Virus record (IMG/VR): IMGVR_UViG_2778261300_000001
Location: 1-11,483 of that record
DNA length: 11,483 nucleotides
Reading direction: 5' to 3' (one strand)
Origin: a virus
Taxonomy: Duplodnaviria; Heunggongvirae; Uroviricota; Caudoviricetes
Part shown: positions 1,535 through 11,483 of the stretch, piece after piece
Layout of the letters: each line of letters starts with the position of its first letter
Position numbering within the stretch: position 1 is the first letter of the stretch
Notes under the pieces: model-generated
Seen by the model: only the letters and a program-made list of their open reading frames with translations
Told to the model about the DNA's origin: nothing
Database searches by the model: none
Program-made: the position numbers and the translations under genes

Positions 1535-1918
1535 ATGCGTGATATTCAGATGGTTCTTGAGCGTTGGGGAGCGTGGGCGGCTAATAATCATGAAGATGTG
1601 ACCTGGTCGTCCATTGCCGCCGGTTTTAAGGGATTAATTACTTCAAAAGTAAAATCTCGCCCGCAATGTTGTGACGATGACGCGATGATCATTTGCGGGT
1701 GCATGGCCCGTCTGAAAAAGAACAACAGCGATTTGCACGATTTATTAGTAGATTATTATGTAGTCGGTATGACATTCATGTCACTGGCAGGTAAGCATGG
1801 CTGCTCTGATGGTTATATCGGGAAAAGGTTACAGAAGGCTGAGGGCATAATTGAAGGGATGTTAATGGCATTAGATATCCGGTTAGAGATGGATATCGTT
1901 GTTAATAACTCTAATTAA
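1535..1918 (+). CDS. quuD: Late-gene antitermination protein Q (QuuD-like), 127 aa
   Basis: [35 protein letters not shown]...[16 protein letters not shown] matches the DLP12 Q-like antiterminator. GGAG lies 7 nt upstream of the ATG at 1535. The track ORF from 1520 uses an upstream TTG. Confidence 0.85.
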
Positions 1919-1951
1919 TATGCCAATTGTTTACTAAAAATTATTAAAAAT

Positions 1952-1969
1952 GGGGCGTTGAGACGCCCC
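1952..1969 (-). terminator. Hairpin (7-bp GC-rich stem GGGGCGT/ACGCCCC, 4-nt loop) followed on the minus strand by a U-rich tract; likely distal terminator for nmpC
   Basis: Stem 1952-1958 pairs with 1963-1969. The plus strand has A-runs on both sides, so on the minus strand the hairpin is followed by AUUUUUAAUAAUUUUU. Confidence 0.5.
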
Positions 1970-2057
1970 CAAAAATAAAGGGTAATATATAACAGAAGGT
2001 TTATATAGTTAGAAGCAAGGTTGTGCTTCTAAAGGAAGTGGCTTGAGGGAGCCACTT

Positions 2058-2097
2058 ATATGTTGGGGAGGCAACGCCTCCCGCAACATATCTTTTT
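2058..2097. terminator. Strong intrinsic terminator hairpin (about 15 bp stem with a 1-nt bulge, loop AAC) plus CTTTTT on the plus strand; sits between the quuD 3' end and the nmpC 3' end and may act in both directions
   Basis: 2058-2072 (ATATGTTGGGGAGGC) pairs with 2076-2091 (GCCTCCCGCAACATAT), with T-run 2093-2097. A second 8-bp hairpin lies at 2036-2057 (AAGTGGCT/AGCCACTT). Confidence 0.65.
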
Positions 2098-2107
2098 CGT
2101 AATCAGA

Positions 2108-3205
2108 TTAGAACTGGTAAACCAGACCTACAGCAACGATGTCATCAGTGCTTACACTGAGTGCTTTAGTGAAGTCATTTTTGTCAAGCAGGTTGATTTT
2201 GTAATCAACGAAAGTAGACATATTTTTGTTGAAGTAATAGGTTGCACCTACATCAACATATTTGACTAAGTCCTGATCGCCCCATACTCCAAGATCCTTA
2301 CCTTTAGATTGCAGGTAAGCAACGGACGGACGCAGACCGAAATCGAACTGATATTGTGCAACAGCTTCGAAGTTTTGGGCTTTATTAGCAACGAAGTGAT
2401 CAGCAAATACAGTCATATTCTGGGTTTCAGAATAGGTAGTGGCCAGGTAAATGTTGTTAGCGTCATATTTCAGACCTGCGGCCCAAACTTCTGCATTTTT
2501 ACCGGAAGCAAATACTTCAGGAAGAACTTTCCCTGCATTAACTTGAGTGTCGGTACGATCAGATTTCGCATAAGTTGCACCGATACCGAATCCTTCGTAT
2601 TCATAGGTAGCAGAGAAACCGAAGCCATCACCGTTACCTTCAGTGTAGTTATCGAAATCGCTACGATCGTTTTTGCCTTGGTACTGAGCAGCAAAGTTCA
2701 GACCATCAACCAGACCAAAGAAGTCGTTGTTACGATAGGTTGCAACACCAGTTGCACGTTGAGTCATGAACACGTCGGTTTGAGTCCAAGTGTCACCACC
2801 GAATTCTGGCAGGACGTCAGTCCACGCACCGATGTCGTATGCTACACCGTAGTTACGGCCGTAATCGATGGAGCCGTAGTCACCGAATTTCAGGCCAGCG
2901 AAGGCAAGACGGGTTTTATCTTTGGAGGAACCTTGAGATTCAGCGCGGTTGCCTTTGAATTCATATTCCCACTGACCGAAACCAGTCAGTTGATCGTTGA
3001 TTTGGGTTTCACCTTTGAAGCCAAGACGGGCATAAGTAGTATCACCATCATCTGCATCATTGGAGGAGAAGTAGTGCTTAGCATTAACTTTCCCGTACAG
3101 ATCCAGCTTGTTACTGTCTTTATTATAAATTTCAGCTGCCTGAGCAGACATCGCCATCAGTACTGATGCAGCTACAGCAGAAATTGCCACTGTTAATTTT
3201 TTCAT
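2108..3205 (-). CDS. nmpC: General bacterial porin of the OmpC/OmpD/NmpC family, 365 aa including signal peptide; prophage moron
   Basis: Signal peptide [23 protein letters not shown], then [17 protein letters not shown]... and C-terminal ...VAVGLVYQF, the typical porin beta-barrel terminus ending in F. I take the ATG at 3203-3205 as the start rather than the upstream extension in the track. The reading frame is uninterrupted. Confidence 0.9.
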
Positions 3206-3632
3206 CGTGAGCCCTTTTTTTGAACTATTATTAAAAAATGATGTCACTGCGCGATAAATATTCATCTAATCAATGTGATTATTTCAAGATGTAAGTTTTG
3301 GTTTCTCGTTTGATTTGTGAAGTAGATCTCTATTTTTATCTGAACTTTTTTCTATCGAATCCTATTCATGGCTCTTGGCTGAATAAAAATAAATCTATTA
3401 GCCAATTTATATTAACGGCTGTTATTTATAAGCGCTCTATAATTTGAAGGTTCAATTTAAACCGGCTAAAAATAACACTGGAAATTATTTGTTGGTTATT
3501 TGTTGAGATTTGCTTATGTATTTGTAGTGGTGTTTTCAATACTCGGTAGCATTCTCGCAAATATCATTTAGTGGTTTACGTACGTAAAAAATTGGTTATG
3601 CTGTTAAGAGTGGTTACTTCGTCACACAGCTT
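3206..3632. promoter_or_regulatory. AT-rich intergenic region: nmpC promoter and 5' leader on the minus strand, probably also late-promoter / essD upstream signals on the plus strand
   Basis: About 570 bp without a credible ORF between the divergent nmpC start and essD. It is AT-rich and contains a tandem 11-bp repeat at 3485-3506. Confidence 0.5.
3485..3506. repeat. Tandem direct repeat, 2 x 11 bp (TTATTTGTTGG / TTATTTGTTGA)
   Basis: Read directly from the sequence at 3485-3495 and 3496-3506. Confidence 0.6.
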
Positions 3633-3665
3633 AAACCCGCCGTCGAGCGGGTTTTTCCATTTTTT
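3633..3665 (+). terminator. Intrinsic terminator (8-bp stem AAACCCGC/GCGGGTTT, 6-nt loop, T-runs); candidate tR'-like terminator upstream of the lysis cassette
   Basis: Stem 3633-3640 pairs with 3647-3654, followed by TTTTT CCA TTTTTT. It lies about 110 bp upstream of the essD start. Confidence 0.6.
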
Positions 3666-3777
3666 GAGTCTCGATATTAGCTGATAACCCAATACCTGAG
3701 TTATTCACTGACTCCGAGTCTGTTACGTTTCGTAGTATTCCCTCAATTTACACCCGCTTTGTCTGCGAGGTGGGGTT

Positions 3778-3993
3778 ATGAAATCCATGGATAAGTTAAC
3801 AACGGGTGTCGCCTATGGCACCTCAGCAGGTAGTGCCGGGTACTGGTTTTTACAGCTGCTAGATAAAGTCACGCCCTCACAGTGGGCGGCAATTGGAGTG
3901 CTGGGTAGCCTGGTATTTGGCCTGCTGACGTACCTGACAAACCTTTATTTCAAGATTAAAGAAGATAAGCGCAAGGCTGCGAGAGGTGGATAA
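3778..3993 (+). CDS. essD: Phage-21-type pinholin S (holin/antiholin with dual-start motif MKSM), 71 aa
   Basis: [71 protein letters not shown] matches the S21/EssD pinholin: two transmembrane helices, Met1 and Met4 dual starts, charged C-terminus. RBS is GAGGTGGGG. Confidence 0.9.
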
Positions 3994-4490
3994 TGCCTCC
4001 ATCATTACGAAAAGCTGTTGCTGCTGCTATTGGTGGCGGGGCTATTGCTATAGCATCTGTGTTAATCACTGGCCCAAGTGGTAACGATGGTCTGGAAGGT
4101 GTGAGACATAATCCTTACAAAGACATAGTTGGTGTATGGACTGTATGTTACGGGCATACAGGAAAAGACATCATGCTCGGTAAAACGTATACCAAAGCAG
4201 AATGCAAAGCACTCTTGAATAAAGACCTTGCCACTGTCGCCAGACAAATTAACCCGTACATCAAAGTCGATATACCGGAAACAACGCGCGGCGCTCTTTA
4301 CTCATTCGTTTACAACGTGGGTGCTGGCAATTTCAGAACATCGACGCTTCTTCGCAAAATAAACCAGGGCGATATCAAAGGCGCATGTGATCAGCTACGT
4401 CGCTGGACATATGCTGGCGGTAAGCAATGGAAAGGTCTCATGACTCGTCGTGAGATTGAGCGTGAAATTTGTTTGTGGGGTCAGCAATGA
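3993..4490 (+). CDS. rrrD: SAR endolysin (lysozyme with N-terminal signal-anchor-release domain), 165 aa
   Basis: N-terminal SAR-like hydrophobic, Gly/Ala-rich segment [18 protein letters not shown], followed by a lysozyme-like domain. The start overlaps the essD stop as TAATG. Matches R21/RrrD. Confidence 0.9.
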
Positions 4491-4951
4491 ACAGAGTAAC
4501 CGCGATTATCTCCGCTCTGGTTATCTGCATCATCGTCTGCCTGTCATGGGCTGTTAATCATTACCGTGATAACGCAATCGCCTACAAAGAGCAGCGCGAT
4601 AACAAGGCCAGTGAACTGGAGAAGGCGAACGCCACCATCGCTGACATGCGGAAGCGTCAACGTGATGTAGCAGAACTCGACGCCAGATACACAAAGGAGC
4701 TTGCTGATGCTAACGCGACTATCGAAAGTCTTCGTGCTGATGTTTCTGCTGGGCGTAAGTGGCTGCGCGTCAAAGCTGTCTGTCCAGACATGCATAAAAT
4801 CACCGCCGCCTCCGGCGTGGATGATGGCACCAGCCCCAGACTTACTGACACCGCTCAACGGGATTATTTCACCCTTAGAAAGCGGATTGAAACCAGTGAT
4901 AAAATGATCCGAGGCTTGCAGCAATACATTCGCACGCAGTGTGTAAGATGA
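4487..4951 (+). CDS. rzpD: Rz-type i-spanin (inner-membrane spanin subunit), 154 aa
   Basis: [26 protein letters not shown]... is an N-terminal transmembrane helix followed by a charged, coiled-coil-like periplasmic domain. The start overlaps the rrrD stop as ATGA. Confidence 0.85.
4707..4907 (+). CDS. rzoD: Rz1-type o-spanin lipoprotein, 66 aa, embedded in the +1 frame of rzpD
   Basis: [23 protein letters not shown]... has a lipobox (VSGC) and a proline-rich mature part ([26 protein letters not shown]) typical of Rz1. GGAG lies 8 nt upstream of the ATG at 4707. It is wholly nested within Rz. Confidence 0.75.
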
Positions 4952-5331: not shown

Positions 5332-5652
5332 TTAGATGCATCGACATTTGATGATGCTTGTCAGACCTGTCATTTTCTTTGCTTCATTTTCAACATTGAG
5401 GAAGTTGGTTGAGCATATTTTTTGATAATCTCCAGTTGTGAATCCTGTTTTATCGATCTTGCGTTTCAAGGGATTAATCGTTTTGCAAGATGCTCTATGG
5501 ATTCTGGTAAAGCGTTCGTCAGATTTATTACCTTTACCTCTGGTTCGCTTCAATGCATTGACAACATATCCGTCTGGATTATCGCCAAGCCAATTACGAT
5601 AGTCTGATTCACTCTCAGTCTGAAGGTCACTTCTGAATACCTTTATGGACAT
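5332..5652 (-). CDS. Hypothetical protein, 106 aa, basic, 4 Cys (possible zinc ribbon); moron in the bor position between the spanins and cos
   Basis: Minus-strand ORF with GGAG 7 nt upstream of the ATG at 5652 (the track's 112-aa version starts at an upstream ATG at 5670). Translation: MSIKVFRSDLQTESESDYRNWLGDNPDGYVVNALKRTRGKGNKSDERFTRIHRASCKTINPLKRKIDKTGFTTGDYQKICSTNFLNVENEAKKMTGLTSIIKCRCI. It lies in an AT-rich island opposite to the flanking phage genes. I cannot place it in a family. Confidence 0.5.
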   Translation of the reverse strand: MSIKVFRSDLQTESESDYRNWLGDNPDGYVVNALKRTRGKGNKSDERFTRIHRASCKTINPLKRKIDKTGFTTGDYQKICSTNFLNVENEAKKMTGLTSIIKCRCI

Positions 5653-5986: not shown

Positions 5987-7366
5987 ATGGATCATGAGTT
6001 GAAAAACTTGGTGCTGAATATTAATCAACTGGCGGCTTTATCTGGTCTGCACCGCCAGACTGTCGTGGCAAGACTGAAAAACATTCGTCCCGCTGGTGGA
6101 CATGACAAACTCAAGCTATATCGGTTGACCGATATTCTGACTGAATTTATGGGGTTACCACCGCCGGTTGCTGAGGGCGAAATGGATCCACATGAACGCA
6201 AAGCCTGGTATCAGTCTGAACGTGAGCGTCTTAAGTTCGAACAGGAAACGGCACAACTCATTCCGGCCAGTGATGTCAGACGGGAGTTTGCCATCTGGGC
6301 AAAAGCGGTCGTGCAGGTGCTGGAGACATTACCGGATATTCTGGAACGTGACTGCGGCCTGCAGCCTGCCGCTGTGAGCCGTGTTCAGTCCATTATTGAT
6401 GATCTGCGCGATCAGATAACCGAATCCCATCTCGGCAAGGAGCTGCTGGAAAAAGTCGAGCTAACGGAGGATAACGCCAGCAAACTGGAGGAGTTTTCGA
6501 AAGAGTGGCAGGACGCTAACGATAAGTGGAATGCTATGTGGGGCGTCAAAATTGAGCAGACCAAAGACGGCAAACATTATGTCGCGGGTATTGGCCTCAG
6601 CATGGAGGACACGGAAGGAGGCAAGCTGAGCCAGTTTCTGGTTGCCGCTAACCGTATCGCGTTTATTGACCCGGCAAACGGGAATGAAACGCCGATGTTT
6701 GTGGCGCAGGGCAATCAGATATTTATGAACGACGTGTTCCTGAAGCGCCTGGCGGCCCCGACCATTACCAGTGGTGGAAATCCACCGGCATTTTCCCTGA
6801 CATCAGACGGAAAGCTGACCGCTAAAAATGCGGATATCAGTGGCAGTGTGAATGCGAACGCCGGGACGCTCAACAATGTCACGGTAAATGAAAACTGTAC
6901 GATTAAGGGCATGCTGGAGGCGACCCAGGTCAGAGGGGATTTCGTTAAAGCTGTATCAAAAGCCTTCCCGAAAAAAGTCGGTACGTGGGGTAACACGGAA
7001 ACACCAAACGGTACGGTTACAGTCACCATCAGCGATGATCATAACTTTGACCGCCAGATTATTATTCCGCCCATTATTTTTAACGGTATAGCGTATGACG
7101 ATCCGGGGAGCGGAAATAACCCAGGAGGCACGCGATACACGGGTTATGGTTTTGAAGTTCGCAAAAACGGCGTATTAATCGCATCCAGAGAAACTAAAGG
7201 GGCCATTCCCGGTAGTTACAGTGCAGTTATTGATATGCCTAGTGGTGGTGGTAGCGTCACTCTGGAGTTTAAGATTTTCCAGAAAGGCAATCAGGGGGCA
7301 GGCAATATCACCGACTGTACGGTGATTGTGACCAAAAAAGCGGCTTCCGGCATCAGTATTCGTTGA
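5987..7366 (+). CDS. In-frame chimeric ORF (459 aa): small-terminase (Nu1-type, HTH) N-terminal region fused to the C-terminal receptor-binding region of tail tip / host-specificity protein J; deletion scar of the morphogenesis region
   Basis: N-terminus [32 protein letters not shown]... is HTH-like and sits where Nu1 would be, downstream of the cos-like site with GGAGG RBS. From about residue 185 onward ([86 protein letters not shown]...) it is near-identical to the lambda J C-terminal region as I remember it. It is followed by lom, as J is in lambda. Confidence 0.8.
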
Positions 7367-7436: not shown

Positions 7437-8036
7437 ATGCGTAAAGTTTGTGCAGCCATTTTGTCCGCAGCCATTTGTCTGGCCGTATCCGGTGCGCCTG
7501 CATGGGCGTCTGAACATCAGTCCACGCTGAGCGCGGGGTATCTTCATGCCCGGACCAACGTTCCCGGCAGTGATGATCTGAACGGGATTAACGTGAAATA
7601 CCGTTATGAGTTTACGGATACGCTGGGGCTGGTGACGTCATTCAGCTATGCAGGAGACAAGAATCGCCAGCTGACCCATTACAGCGATACCCGCTGGCAT
7701 GAAGATTCCGTGCGTAACCGCTGGTTCAGCGTAATGGCGGGGCCGTCTGTGCGCGTGAATGAATGGTTCAGCGCGTATGCGATGGCGGGTGTGGCTTACA
7801 GCCGTGTGTCGACTTTCTCCGGGGATTATCTCCGCGTAACTGACAACAAGGGGAAAACGCACGACGTGCTGACCGGAAGTGATGACGGTCGCCACAGCAA
7901 CACGTCTCTGGCGTGGGGGGCTGGCGTGCAGTTTAACCCGGCCGAATCCGTGGCCATTGATATTGCTTATGAAGGCTCCGGCAGTGGCGACTGGCGCACT
8001 GACGGTTTCATCGTGGGTGTCGGTTATAAGTTCTGA
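7437..8036 (+). CDS. lom: Lom outer-membrane protein (Ail/Lom/OmpX family beta-barrel), 199 aa with signal peptide
   Basis: Signal peptide MRKVCAAILSAAICLAVSGAPAWA, and a C-terminal ...GFIVGVGYKF beta-barrel terminus. It sits between J and stf as in lambda. RBS is AGAGG. Confidence 0.9.
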   Translation: MRKVCAAILSAAICLAVSGAPAWASEHQSTLSAGYLHARTNVPGSDDLNGINVKYRYEFTDTLGLVTSFSYAGDKNRQLTHYSDTRWHEDSVRNRWFSVMAGPSVRVNEWFSAYAMAGVAYSRVSTFSGDYLRVTDNKGKTHDVLTGSDDGRHSNTSLAWGAGVQFNPAESVAIDIAYEGSGSGDWRTDGFIVGVGYKF

Positions 8037-8100: not shown

Positions 8101-11100
8101 ATGGCAGTAAAGATTTCAGGTGTACTGAAAGATGGCACAGGAAAACCGGTACAGAACTGCACAATCCAGCTGAAAGCAAAACGTAACAGCACCACGGTGG
8201 TGGTGAACACGCTGGCCTCAGAAAATCCGGATGAAGCCGGGCGTTACAGTATGGACGTTGAGTACGGTCAGTACAGCGTTATTCTGTTGGTGGAAGGATT
8301 CCCGCCGTCACATGCCGGGACCATCACCGTGTATGAAGATTCCCGACCCGGTACGCTGAATGATTTTCTCGGTGCCATGACGGAGGATGATGCCCGTCCG
8401 GAGGCACTGCGCCGCTTTGAACTGATGGTGGAAGAGGTGGCGCGTAACGCGTCCGTGGTGGCGCAGAACACAGCAGCCGCGAAGAAGTCAGCCAGCGATG
8501 CCAGCACATCAGCCCGTGAGGCGGCAACCCGTGCGACTGATGCTGCAGGCTCAGCACGCGCAGCCAGTACGTCAGCCGGACAGGCCGCGTCGTCGGCTCA
8601 GTCAGCGACTTCCAGCGCAGGAACGGCATCAACAAAGGCCACTGAAGCATCAAAAAGTGCTGCCGCTGCAGAGTCCTCAAAAAGCGCGGCAGCTACCAGT
8701 GCCAGTGCCGCGAAAACGTCAGAAACGAATGCGGCAGCGTCACAAAAATCTGCAGCCACTTCTGCATCCGCCGCGACCACAAAGGCGTCAGAAGCTGCCA
8801 CCTCAGCCCGGGATGCGGCGGCCTCAAAAGAGGCAGCGAAATCATCAGAAACGAACGCATCATCAAGCGCCAGTAGTGCCGCTTCCTCGGCAACGGCGGC
8901 AGGAAATTCCGCGAAGGCGGCAAAGACGTCCGAGACGAACGCCAGGTCTTCTGAAACGGCAGCGGGACAGAGTGCCTCAGCTGCGGCAGGCTCAAAAACA
9001 GCGGCTGCGTCGTCTGCCAGTGCAGCGTCAACAAGTGCCGGGCAGGCCTCAGCCAGTGCTAGCGCCGCCGGAAAATCGGCAGAAAGCGCCGCATCGTCCG
9101 CTTCAACAGCCACAACGAAGGCTGGCGAAGCCACTGAACAGGCCAGTGCAGCAGCGAGGGCTGCTTCCGCAGCGAAGACATCCGAAACGAACGCGAAAGC
9201 GTCGGAAACCAGCGCAGAATCCTCAAAAACGGCTGCCGCATCGTCCGCCAGTTCGGCGGCGTCATCGGCATCATCTGCGTCTGCTTCAAAAGATGAGGCG
9301 ACCAGACAGGCGTCAGCAGCAAAGGGCAGCGCCACGACGGCATCCACGAAGGCGACAGAGGCTGCTGGCAGTGCGACGGCGGCAGCACAGAGCAAAAGTA
9401 CGGCAGAATCCGCAGCAACGCGCGCTGAGACAGCGGCAAAACGTGCAGAGGATATTGCATCCGCCGTGGCGCTTGAGGATGCGAGCACGACGAAAAAGGG
9501 GGTAGTACAGCTCAGCAGTGCGACCAACAGCACGTCTGAAACGCTGGCGGCAACGCCAAAGGCAGTAAAAGCAGCCTATGACAATGCAGAGAAACGTCTG
9601 CAGAAAGACCAGAACGGTGCTGATATTCCCGACAAGGACCGCTTCCTGAGTAACATTAATGTTTACAGCAAAGGTGAAGTGGATCAGAAAAAGGGGATGC
9701 GATACGTTGTGGTAAATGCCCCGGCGGGTGTCCAGGAAGGTAAATATTATCCGTTAGTGATAAAAAGGAATGACAGCCATCGGGCATCCCGCGTTGTCAT
9801 TTCAACGCCAAGTCGCTCAGCTAATCACAGAATGAATAATTGTGAGTTTAATGGTTTTGTTTGCGCAGGCGGCTGGACGGACCGGGGTAGCTATGCCTGT
9901 GGTATGTTCTGGGCTTATTCATCATCGGAACGCGCTATTCATTCCATTCTGATGAGTAATAAAGGCGATACCGTAGACAGCGTATTCTATATAGAAGGTG
10001 GGGCATTTCCCGTAGAGGTCTTTTTAGAAGAAGGTCTCTCCGTTACTGCACCTGCTTCTGATTATATTGTTGCTGAAACGACTTATAAATTTGGCGCAAC
10101 TGATCCTTATTCTGAATCAGTTGCGGTAAATTTAATTTTAGATTTTAAACAAGGTAATGGATTTTATAGTTCGTATCCTGTTTTGAGTAAGTCAGACATT
10201 AGCGGGAATAAGATTTACGCTAATGATGAAGTTATTGTCCGTAGTCAGAACGCGTTAAGGATGATTGCAGGTGATTACGGTGTCATATGGCGAAATGATG
10301 GAGCAAATACTTACTTGCTCATGACTGATAAAGGCGACCAGTACGGTGGCTGGAACGGTCTTCGACCATTTGCAGTAAATAACGCAACAGGTGAAGTGAC
10401 GATCAATACACCACTTAATTCTCCTAAGGGGATTAAGGGAAATTCTGATACAGCTACGAAACTTCAGACAGCAATAAAAATATCTGGTGTTTCGTTTGAT
10501 GGTTCTACTGATATCACTTTAACCGCTGCGCATGTTGCTGCTTTTGCCAGAAGAGCAACGGATACGTATGCCGATGCGGATGGGGGCGTTCCCTGGAATG
10601 CCGAATCAGGCGCTTACAATGTCACCCGCTCTGGCAACAGCTATATTCTGGTTAACTTCTATACCGGAGTCGGAAGTTGCCGGACCTTGCAGATGAAGGC
10701 GCATTACAGAAATGGTGGTCTGTTCTACCGTTCTTCAAGAGACGGTTATGGTTTTGAGGAAGACTGGGCAGAAGTTTATACCTCGAAAAATCTTCCACCA
10801 GAAAGCTACCCAGTCGGCGCACCAATCCCGTGGCCATCAGATACCGTTCCGTCTGGTTATGCCCTGATGCAGGGGCAGACTTTTGACAAATCTGCTTACC
10901 CGAAACTTGCAGCCGCTTATCCGTCAGGCGTGATCCCTGATATGCGTGGCTGGACGATTAAGGGCAAGCCCGCCAGTGGTCGTGCCGTATTGTCTCAGGA
11001 ACAGGACGGCATTAAATCGCACACCCACAGCGCCAGCGCATCCAGTACGGATTTGGGTACGAAAACCACATCGTCGTTTGATTACGGCACTAAATCCACG

Positions 11101-11483
11101 AATAACACCGGGGCGCATACCCATAGTATTAGCGGGACAGCAAATAGTGCCGGTGCGCACCAACACAAGAGTTCCGGTGCATTTGGTGGCACGAACACGA
11201 GCATTTTTCCTAATGGTTATACTGCGATTTCAAATCTAAGCGCGGGGATTATGAGCACAACAAGCGGTACTGGCCAGACTCGTAATGCAGGGAAGACATC
11301 ATCAGATGGTGCTCATACCCACTCACTGTCCGGCACTGCTGCAAGCGCAGGTGCACACGCACATACTGTCGGTATTGGTGCTCATACGCACTCCGTTGCG
11401 ATTGGTTCACATGGACACACCATCACCGTTAACGCTGCTGGTAACGCGGAAAACACCGTCAAAAACATCGCATTTAACTATAT
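8101..11483 (+). CDS. stf: Side tail fiber protein Stf, 3'-partial (at least 1127 codons; continues past the window end)
   Basis: N-terminus [80 protein letters not shown] is the conserved lambda Stf / StfR N-terminus. I translated the frame by hand from 8101 to 11483 and met no stop. It contains a long Ala/Ser/Thr-rich repeat region and C-terminal GAHTHS-type His repeats. It is missing from the ORF track, which appears to list only complete ORFs ending in a stop. Confidence 0.9.
8460..9480 (+). repeat. Low-complexity Ala/Ser/Thr-rich coding repeat region inside stf, with a recurring 23-nt unit encoding AK(T/S)SETNA
   Basis: Units GCGAAAACGTCAGAAACGAATGC (8709), GCGAAATCATCAGAAACGAACGC (8836), GCAAAGACGTCCGAGACGAACGC (8920) and GCGAAGACATCCGAAACGAACGC (9182). 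GCN-rich codon composition generates long shadow ORFs in other frames. Confidence 0.7.

Follow-up and report, generated by a model that had tools for sequence, protein, structure and literature searches.

The porin gene on the minus strand of the window (the whole 11,483-nt stretch of DNA that was analysed) is intact and probably functional. As judged from its sequence context, the cassette to which it belongs (~1919-3573) is probably a self-contained moron lying between the late antiterminator gene Q and a probable late promoter. We consider it highly probable that this cassette acts as a porin-swap moron, whose own CRP- and temperature-responsive promoter makes NmpC and whose small RNA IpeX lowers OmpC and OmpF, thereby altering permeability and receptors of the host.

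The window carries an intact porin gene of the NmpC/Lc lineage

The open reading frame extends from an ATG at 3205-3203 to a TAA stop codon at 2110-2108, and the gene call in the public assembly covers exactly the same range. Because its translation aligns without gaps to the 365-residue Lc porin of phage PA-2, with neither frameshift nor premature stop codon, we regard the gene as real and intact, as the preliminary description had proposed. The Pfam model Porin_1 (PF00267) is matched from end to end (model positions 1-337 of 337, 521 bits, E 2e-156), and the score of 528.8 bits against the NCBIfam subfamily 'porin OmpC' lies above its cut-off of 484. An alternative ATG further upstream, at 3265, would give an open reading frame of 385 residues and was discarded, as all homologs begin with MKKLTV.

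The frame had also been described as complete from signal peptide to C-terminal phenylalanine, and alignments to known porins revealed both ends. The signal peptide terminates in AQA, and the same 23 residues constitute the sig_peptide feature of the PA-2 lc record. Solved structures of OmpC, OmpK36, OmpF and PhoE align over residues 24-365 (E 1e-137 to 1e-108), their mature chains beginning at residue 24 of our protein, and the mature N-terminus is of the AE(I/V)YNKD type. The PEFGGD motif of the constriction loop L3, the conserved basic residues facing L3 (among them the lysine of LYGK and the arginine of QRATG) and the C-terminal VYQF all align with their counterparts in OmpC, OmpF and PhoE. 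The C-terminal aromatic residue of porins, here phenylalanine, is needed for their assembly. Judging from an identity of ~66% to the solved OmpC, the protein would be expected to form a 16-stranded trimeric pore, and its sequence places it among the general diffusion porins of the NmpC/Lc lineage.

Table 1 Features of the porin cassette and its flanks in the window.
Feature	Position	Strand	Remarks
Late antiterminator Q (QuuD type)	1535-1918	+	PF06530; phrog_79, E 6e-53; convergent with the porin gene
Porin 3′ UTR, corresponding to the IpeX small RNA (by sequence)	1940-2107	-	168 nt; four predicted hairpins and an intrinsic terminator
Intrinsic terminator of the porin/IpeX transcript (predicted)	1952-1969	-	GGGGCGTCTCAACGCCCC followed by ATTTTT; terminator scan
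Porin gene (nmpC/lc allele)	2108-3205	-	365 codons and stop, intact; open reading frame, translation, homology
Porin signal peptide	3137-3205	-	23 residues; mature protein begins AEIYNK
AT-rich upstream regulatory region of the porin gene	3206-3573	-	~368 bp
Candidate CRP (cAMP receptor protein) site	3313-3333		misc_binding feature in the PA-2 lc record
Probable late promoter pR′ and terminator tR′	3574-3656	+	83 bp; right-hand edge of the moron
Lysis cassette	3778-4951	+	Pfam families; essD/rrrD/rzpD in matching genomes; 434B annotation
Holin	3778-3993	+	lysis cassette
SAR endolysin	3993-4490	+	lysis cassette
Spanins	4487-4951	+	lysis cassette; o-spanin-like open reading frame at 4701-4907

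The porin is nearly identical to phage-borne alleles and distinct from OmpD

The assignment to the NmpC/OmpD family was borne out by alignment to K-12 nmpC and Salmonella OmpD. Residues 1-346 are identical to K-12 NmpC. Further identities are 96% to the E. albertii porin, ~80% to Salmonella OmpD, 69% to OmpN, 66% to OmpC, 65% to PhoE and 61.5% to OmpF. The copy of the DLP12 (qsr′) prophage in K-12 had been described as interrupted by IS5 towards its 3′ end; indeed, in MG1655 an IS5B element follows codon 346 of nmpC. This insertion substitutes for the final 19 residues, among them the C-terminal phenylalanine, and splits the gene from its 3′ untranslated region (3′ UTR), whereas the gene in the window is uninterrupted and still joined to this region. 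Apart from the insertion, the two loci are much alike, with an identical 3′ UTR and three differences across the 572-bp upstream region. The neighbors are also shared, with ybcO, rusA, ylcG and quuD on one side and essD, rrrD and rzpD on the other.

The porin of ETEC H10407 matches at 364 of 365 positions, the sole difference being S350G. Residue 350, which falls within a variable stretch, is serine in the window and glycine in PA-2, H10407 and E. albertii. The Lc porin of phage PA-2 (gene lc, GenBank J02580) likewise has 365 residues and aligns without indels, 360 of them being identical (98.6%); the five differences are R99H, Q149G, A151T, V154F and S350G. Both genes encode the same signal peptide, are flanked by Q and the lysis genes (S/R/Rz in PA-2), which occupy the other strand, share an identical 3′ UTR and agree base for base at the two CRP sites annotated in PA-2. 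Their upstream regions differ by ~20 substitutions, one 16-bp and one 1-bp indel. Furthermore, PA-2 is a viable phage, whereas the element in the window is devoid of head and tail genes.

The closest chromosomal relative is OmpD of Salmonella enterica and Citrobacter (~80% identity), which shares the mature N-terminus, the L3 motif and the C-terminus but has a different signal peptide. Filing the porin as OmpD, as several phage annotations do, was ruled out by the phage context and by this level of identity.

Among phage-borne alleles, the first 148 residues are nearly invariant, and differences cluster at residues 182-190, 219-236, 268-272 and 340-352, the sites of indels in OmpC. Such clustering resembles the pattern expected of surface loops under pressure from phages or antibodies.

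The 3′ untranslated region corresponds to the small RNA IpeX

Downstream of the porin gene, all 189 bases from the porin stop codon to the Q stop codon are identical in the window, K-12, PA-2 and H10407. The RNA of 1940-2107, whose limits we set by the porin stop codon and the predicted terminator, folds with a minimum free energy of -62.9 kcal/mol (z -9.5). In phages whose porin coding sequence is 85-88% identical, the 3′ UTR retains 94-97% identity and is thus more conserved than the coding sequence. In E. albertii, a 3′ UTR of 165 nt still adjoins the porin gene even though the neighboring Q is only weakly similar. The stem of the terminator is invariant across seven related sequences, with changes confined to the loop. 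Covariation among the seven sequences is thin because they are too alike, with a few pairs broken and compensatory changes at one pair of 50; the support for this region therefore lies in its conservation, covariation being too little to prove the fold. A search of the whole window against Rfam at gathering thresholds returned no match, and as IpeX has no Rfam model, a curated model cannot confirm it.

Loss of OmpC as a receptor, along with altered permeability of the outer membrane, is known as the classic lysogenic conversion by phage PA-2. Castillo-Keller et al. are said to have found in 2006 that the 3′ UTR of lc is required for the loss of OmpC in PA-2 lysogens. The IpeX small RNA of DLP12 and PA-2, described from this same position, is a repressor of ompC and ompF (PMC5069750, PMC8065619, PMC3333887, PMC10690425). 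From position and sequence, we take the 3′ UTR at 1940-2107 to correspond to IpeX. The preliminary description had overlooked this RNA, which would make up half of the cassette's action.

An open reading frame of 69 codons (2060-2269, plus strand) runs antisense to the 3′ end of the porin gene; PA-2 annotates it as 'ORF1' and 434B as a hypothetical protein. It shares sequence with both the porin coding region and the conserved 3′ UTR and is probably not a gene.

The cassette may exchange host porins for NmpC

In the mechanism that we propose, the cassette would be cargo of a lambdoid prophage of the DLP12/PA-2 type. Transcription would start within its own AT-rich upstream region, which holds the conserved CRP site, and the NmpC/Lc porin would be exported by means of its signal peptide. 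The same transcript would carry the structured 3′ UTR and end at its own intrinsic terminator, and IpeX would lower the synthesis of OmpC and OmpF. Since IpeX represses these two porins, the cassette can be read as a porin-swap module by which NmpC is added and the major porins of the host are reduced. Such a swap would alter the permeability of the outer membrane and take away OmpC as a receptor for phages and colicins, exclusion being the phenotype expected from it. Intact NmpC and IpeX can thus change the porin make-up of the outer membrane, which affects the entry of antibiotics and nutrients, heat tolerance and the sensitivity to phages and colicins that dock to OmpC or OmpF. Both are hence of relevance to strain phenotyping and to the choice of therapeutic phages.

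A related but somewhat unlikely account, which is compatible with the porin swap, holds that the porin is made and serves the host mainly as an alternative porin for nutrient uptake or heat stress, any effect on phage receptors being incidental. The virion genes of the element are lost, and a benefit to the phage would therefore no longer be selected; moreover, two reports cite NmpC as contributing to the heat resistance of strain AW1.7 and as induced at body temperature (PMC12890032, PMC8544407). However, a conserved IpeX tail that lowers OmpC and OmpF, together with allelic variation focused on the loops, fits selection driven by receptors.

Selection, codon usage and published data argue for expression of the porin

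The preliminary description had credited the gene with an AT-rich upstream region of its own of 570 bp. The AT-richness and the distance hold, as the 572 bp separating the start codons of porin and holin have a GC content of 35% (30% over 3206-3600, compared with 48% for the whole window). However, only ~368 bp of this interval (3206-3573) belong to the porin, the remainder being taken up by the late-promoter-like element and the holin leader (see below). Over 3206-3777, three positions differ from K-12 and one from H10407.

A strict promoter scan of 1850-3850 found no promoter. A relaxed scan yielded a weak candidate for the porin on the minus strand, with a -35 hexamer TTGAAA at 3287-3282 and a -10 hexamer GAATAT at 3263-3258 (8 of 12 consensus matches). 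As the strict scan was empty, the position of the porin promoter is deduced from these weak hexamers. The candidate CRP site upstream matches PA-2 at 21 of 21 positions, contains TGTGA and agrees with the consensus at 8 of 10 positions. The second CRP site of the PA-2 record, which dates from 1986, is also exactly conserved, at 3609-3629. It falls inside the late-promoter-like element, immediately after its -10 hexamer. Its assignment to the regulation of lc is doubtful, because it lies where the putative late transcript would begin, and it may instead serve the control of that transcript.

The porin gene shows the marks of purifying selection, with a dN/dS of 0.027 against E. albertii (dS 0.67) and of 0.108 against PA-2. 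Its fraction of preferred codons is 0.74, compared with 0.80 for ompF, 0.67 for ompN and 0.47-0.61 for the neighboring phage genes. Promoter activity is known for the near-identical region of K-12, where nmpC mRNA rises 16.5-fold upon a shift of strain MC4100 to 37 °C (PMC8544407). In CFT073, both nmpC homologs are preferentially expressed at 37 °C at the level of mRNA and protein (PMC12890032), and an 'apparently functional ompD' (ompD/nmpC) has been noted in EAEC 042 (PMC2808357). Purifying selection, codon bias, the conserved regulatory sites and these published data on homologs suggest that the porin is expressed.

Conversely, the gene might be intact and yet silent, with nucleoid proteins holding off the AT-rich upstream region so that the porin contributes nothing to the envelope. 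This agrees with the 30% GC content of that region and with the failure to find a strong sigma-70 promoter. It also agrees with a publication title, cited in two reports, that terms the intact nmpC of E. coli B(E) a 'quiescent porin gene' (PMC5745476, PMC3333887), for which reason intactness is no guarantee of expression. Low dN/dS values and a codon bias above that of the phage neighbors argue for use of the gene, however, as do the induction from a K-12 promoter region differing by three bases and the detection of the CFT073 homologs as protein at 37 °C. We therefore judge silence to be improbable and retain the view that the cassette's own promoter makes NmpC.

The cassette lies between Q and a probable late promoter

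In the preliminary description, the porin gene separates Q from the lysis cassette and runs on the other strand. This arrangement is found, with Q (annotated quuD in matching genomes) ending at 1918 and the holin gene starting at 3778, both on the plus strand. To compare the site with those of related phages, the flanks of the cassette without the porin were used as the query. The 83-bp stretch at 3574-3656 shares 78% identity with an 83-bp element located immediately next to a related Q in the Stx1 phage H-19B, upstream of stx1A, the two Q genes themselves sharing 78% nucleotide identity. It is 86% identical to an element of PhiR40_1. No porin intervenes between the related Q and the adjoining 83-bp element in H-19B and more than 20 Stx1a phages; in PhiR40_1, the gap between Q and the element is filled by an unrelated open reading frame of 148 codons without Pfam match. 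Counterparts of the element were located at 1122-1203 of locus L095 and at 2162-2244 of locus L096. Thus, the cargo is present in some related phages and absent from others at the same site, as expected of a moron. As to a promoter and a terminator of its own, the terminator is predicted and the promoter is the weak hexamer candidate described above; the composition deviates from the surroundings (30% GC upstream).

Within the 83-bp element, a -35 hexamer TTTACG (3575-3580) and a -10 hexamer TATGCT (3597-3602) are followed by a terminator at 3633-3654, as judged from a terminator scan. In comparison with H-19B and PhiR40_1, the hexamers are conserved and the 16-nt spacer varies. Transcription of stx in Stx phages starts at pR′, near Q, and is subject to antitermination at tR′ (PMC6266700, PMC7547250). 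Owing to its homology to the post-Q element of H-19B and to the closeness of pR′ to Q in Stx phages, we read 3574-3656 as pR′/tR′; together with the holin leader beyond, it is the probable promoter/terminator region of the late operon. As the cassette is located between Q and this probable late promoter, it is not included in the late transcript that depends on Q, and its expression from the resident prophage is to be expected.

Very improbably, the conservation of 1919-2107 could instead reflect a late promoter and Q-utilisation site on the plus strand rather than a small RNA, sending late transcription antisense through the porin gene; pR′ does lie close after Q in lambda and Stx phages (PMC6266700, PMC7547250), and a bulged hairpin followed by CTTTTT occurs on the plus strand at ~2066-2101, but this placement was rejected after the comparison with H-19B and PhiR40_1, since the element abutting Q in H-19B and the Stx1a phages has its homolog at 3574-3656 rather than at 1919-2107, the E. 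albertii 3′ UTR stays with the porin despite the divergent Q, and the promoter scan found no promoter-like site in 1919-2107.

The stx morons, as in H-19B, are likewise cargo in the Q-to-lysis interval of lambdoid phages with a related Q. They lie downstream of pR′-tR′ on the same strand and form part of the late transcript modified by Q (PMC6266700, PMC7547250). In contrast, the porin cassette is positioned upstream of the pR′-like element, on the opposite strand and with its own terminator. The junction of Q and the late promoter may be a recurrent slot for opposite-strand cargo, which would be a mildly new angle on this site. More tentatively, and with slightly less than even confidence, we propose that the QuuD/H-19B-type Q/pR′ junction is a recurrent landing site where opposite-strand cargo (porin and IpeX in the window, the unrelated open reading frame in PhiR40_1) escapes late transcription and is expressed by the resident prophage, and that porin and IpeX are kept by purifying selection as a porin swap serving the host in a prophage devoid of virion genes.

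The phage-borne cassette is widespread in Escherichia

The exact porin protein is already public on 375 contigs under the label 'porin [Escherichia coli]' and belongs to a 90%-identity cluster with members named Lc and NmpC. Among 5,426 complete E. coli genomes, 2,465 carry the Q-porin-holin segment at a coverage of at least 80%, and it also occurs in dozens of lambdoid phages; K-12, H10407, PA-2, 434B and more than 30 phage genomes share the order Q, porin, holin. With a query spanning the IS5 site of K-12, the gene appears uninterrupted in 760 of 1,059 matching genomes, and the split ones among the matches listed are of the K-12 type.

We also surveyed 80 loci, taking one genome per species. 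Phage neighbors and an IpeX-like tail occur only at the E. coli and E. albertii loci, and Q, holin, endolysin and IpeX-like sequence are absent within 3 kb at all 78 non-Escherichia loci, including the OmpD loci L007 and L008. The relatives with 75-80% identity in Salmonella, Citrobacter and Enterobacter are chromosomal. Given this absence around the OmpD loci, OmpD is a related chromosomal porin rather than the same mobile cassette, and the phage-borne cassette is a feature of Escherichia. The gene, its IS5-cut K-12 form, its PA-2 counterpart and the IpeX RNA are all already known and have been described since the 1980s to 2000s; being present in nearly half of the complete E. coli genomes, the porin-IpeX cassette opens no new question.

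The cassette resides in a defective mosaic prophage

The window represents the entire draft contig NOMQ01000055.1 of assembly GCA_002518655.1. In a megablast search of complete E. coli genomes, none covered 80% or more of the whole window in one place; we thus regard it as a rare mosaic of modules. Past the lysis genes it departs from K-12 DLP12, which continues with bor, ybcV and nohD, whereas the window holds an orphan open reading frame and a terminase-J fusion. The former (106 codons, 5332-5652, minus strand) lies in an AT-rich stretch between the spanins and the fusion, where DLP12 has bor and ybcV. It had no match in Pfam, NCBIfam or PHROGs and may be an orphan cargo gene or no gene at all.

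The fusion (459 codons, 5987-7366, plus strand) joins a terminase small subunit in frame to a lambda-J-type tail tip protein. Residues 1-164 form a near-complete terminase small subunit (phrog_141, DUF1441) and the C-terminal ~325 residues are of the J type; this exact protein is on record for this contig only. As all head and tail genes between terminase and J are missing, the prophage is defective. The J remnant is followed by a gene for an outer-membrane beta-barrel of the Ail/Lom family (7437-8036, plus strand), a second envelope-modifying cargo gene of the same defective prophage.

Finally, a side tail fiber gene with phage_tail_N, Gp34_trimer and Collar domains (8101-11483, plus strand) runs off the end of the contig. 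A search of this region for a tandem array found none. Residues ~120-470 of the fiber consist of low-complexity sequence rich in alanine, serine, threonine and lysine, which accounts for a GC content of 60-63%, an AT skew reaching 0.5 at 8400-9600 and spurious long open reading frames in the other frames.
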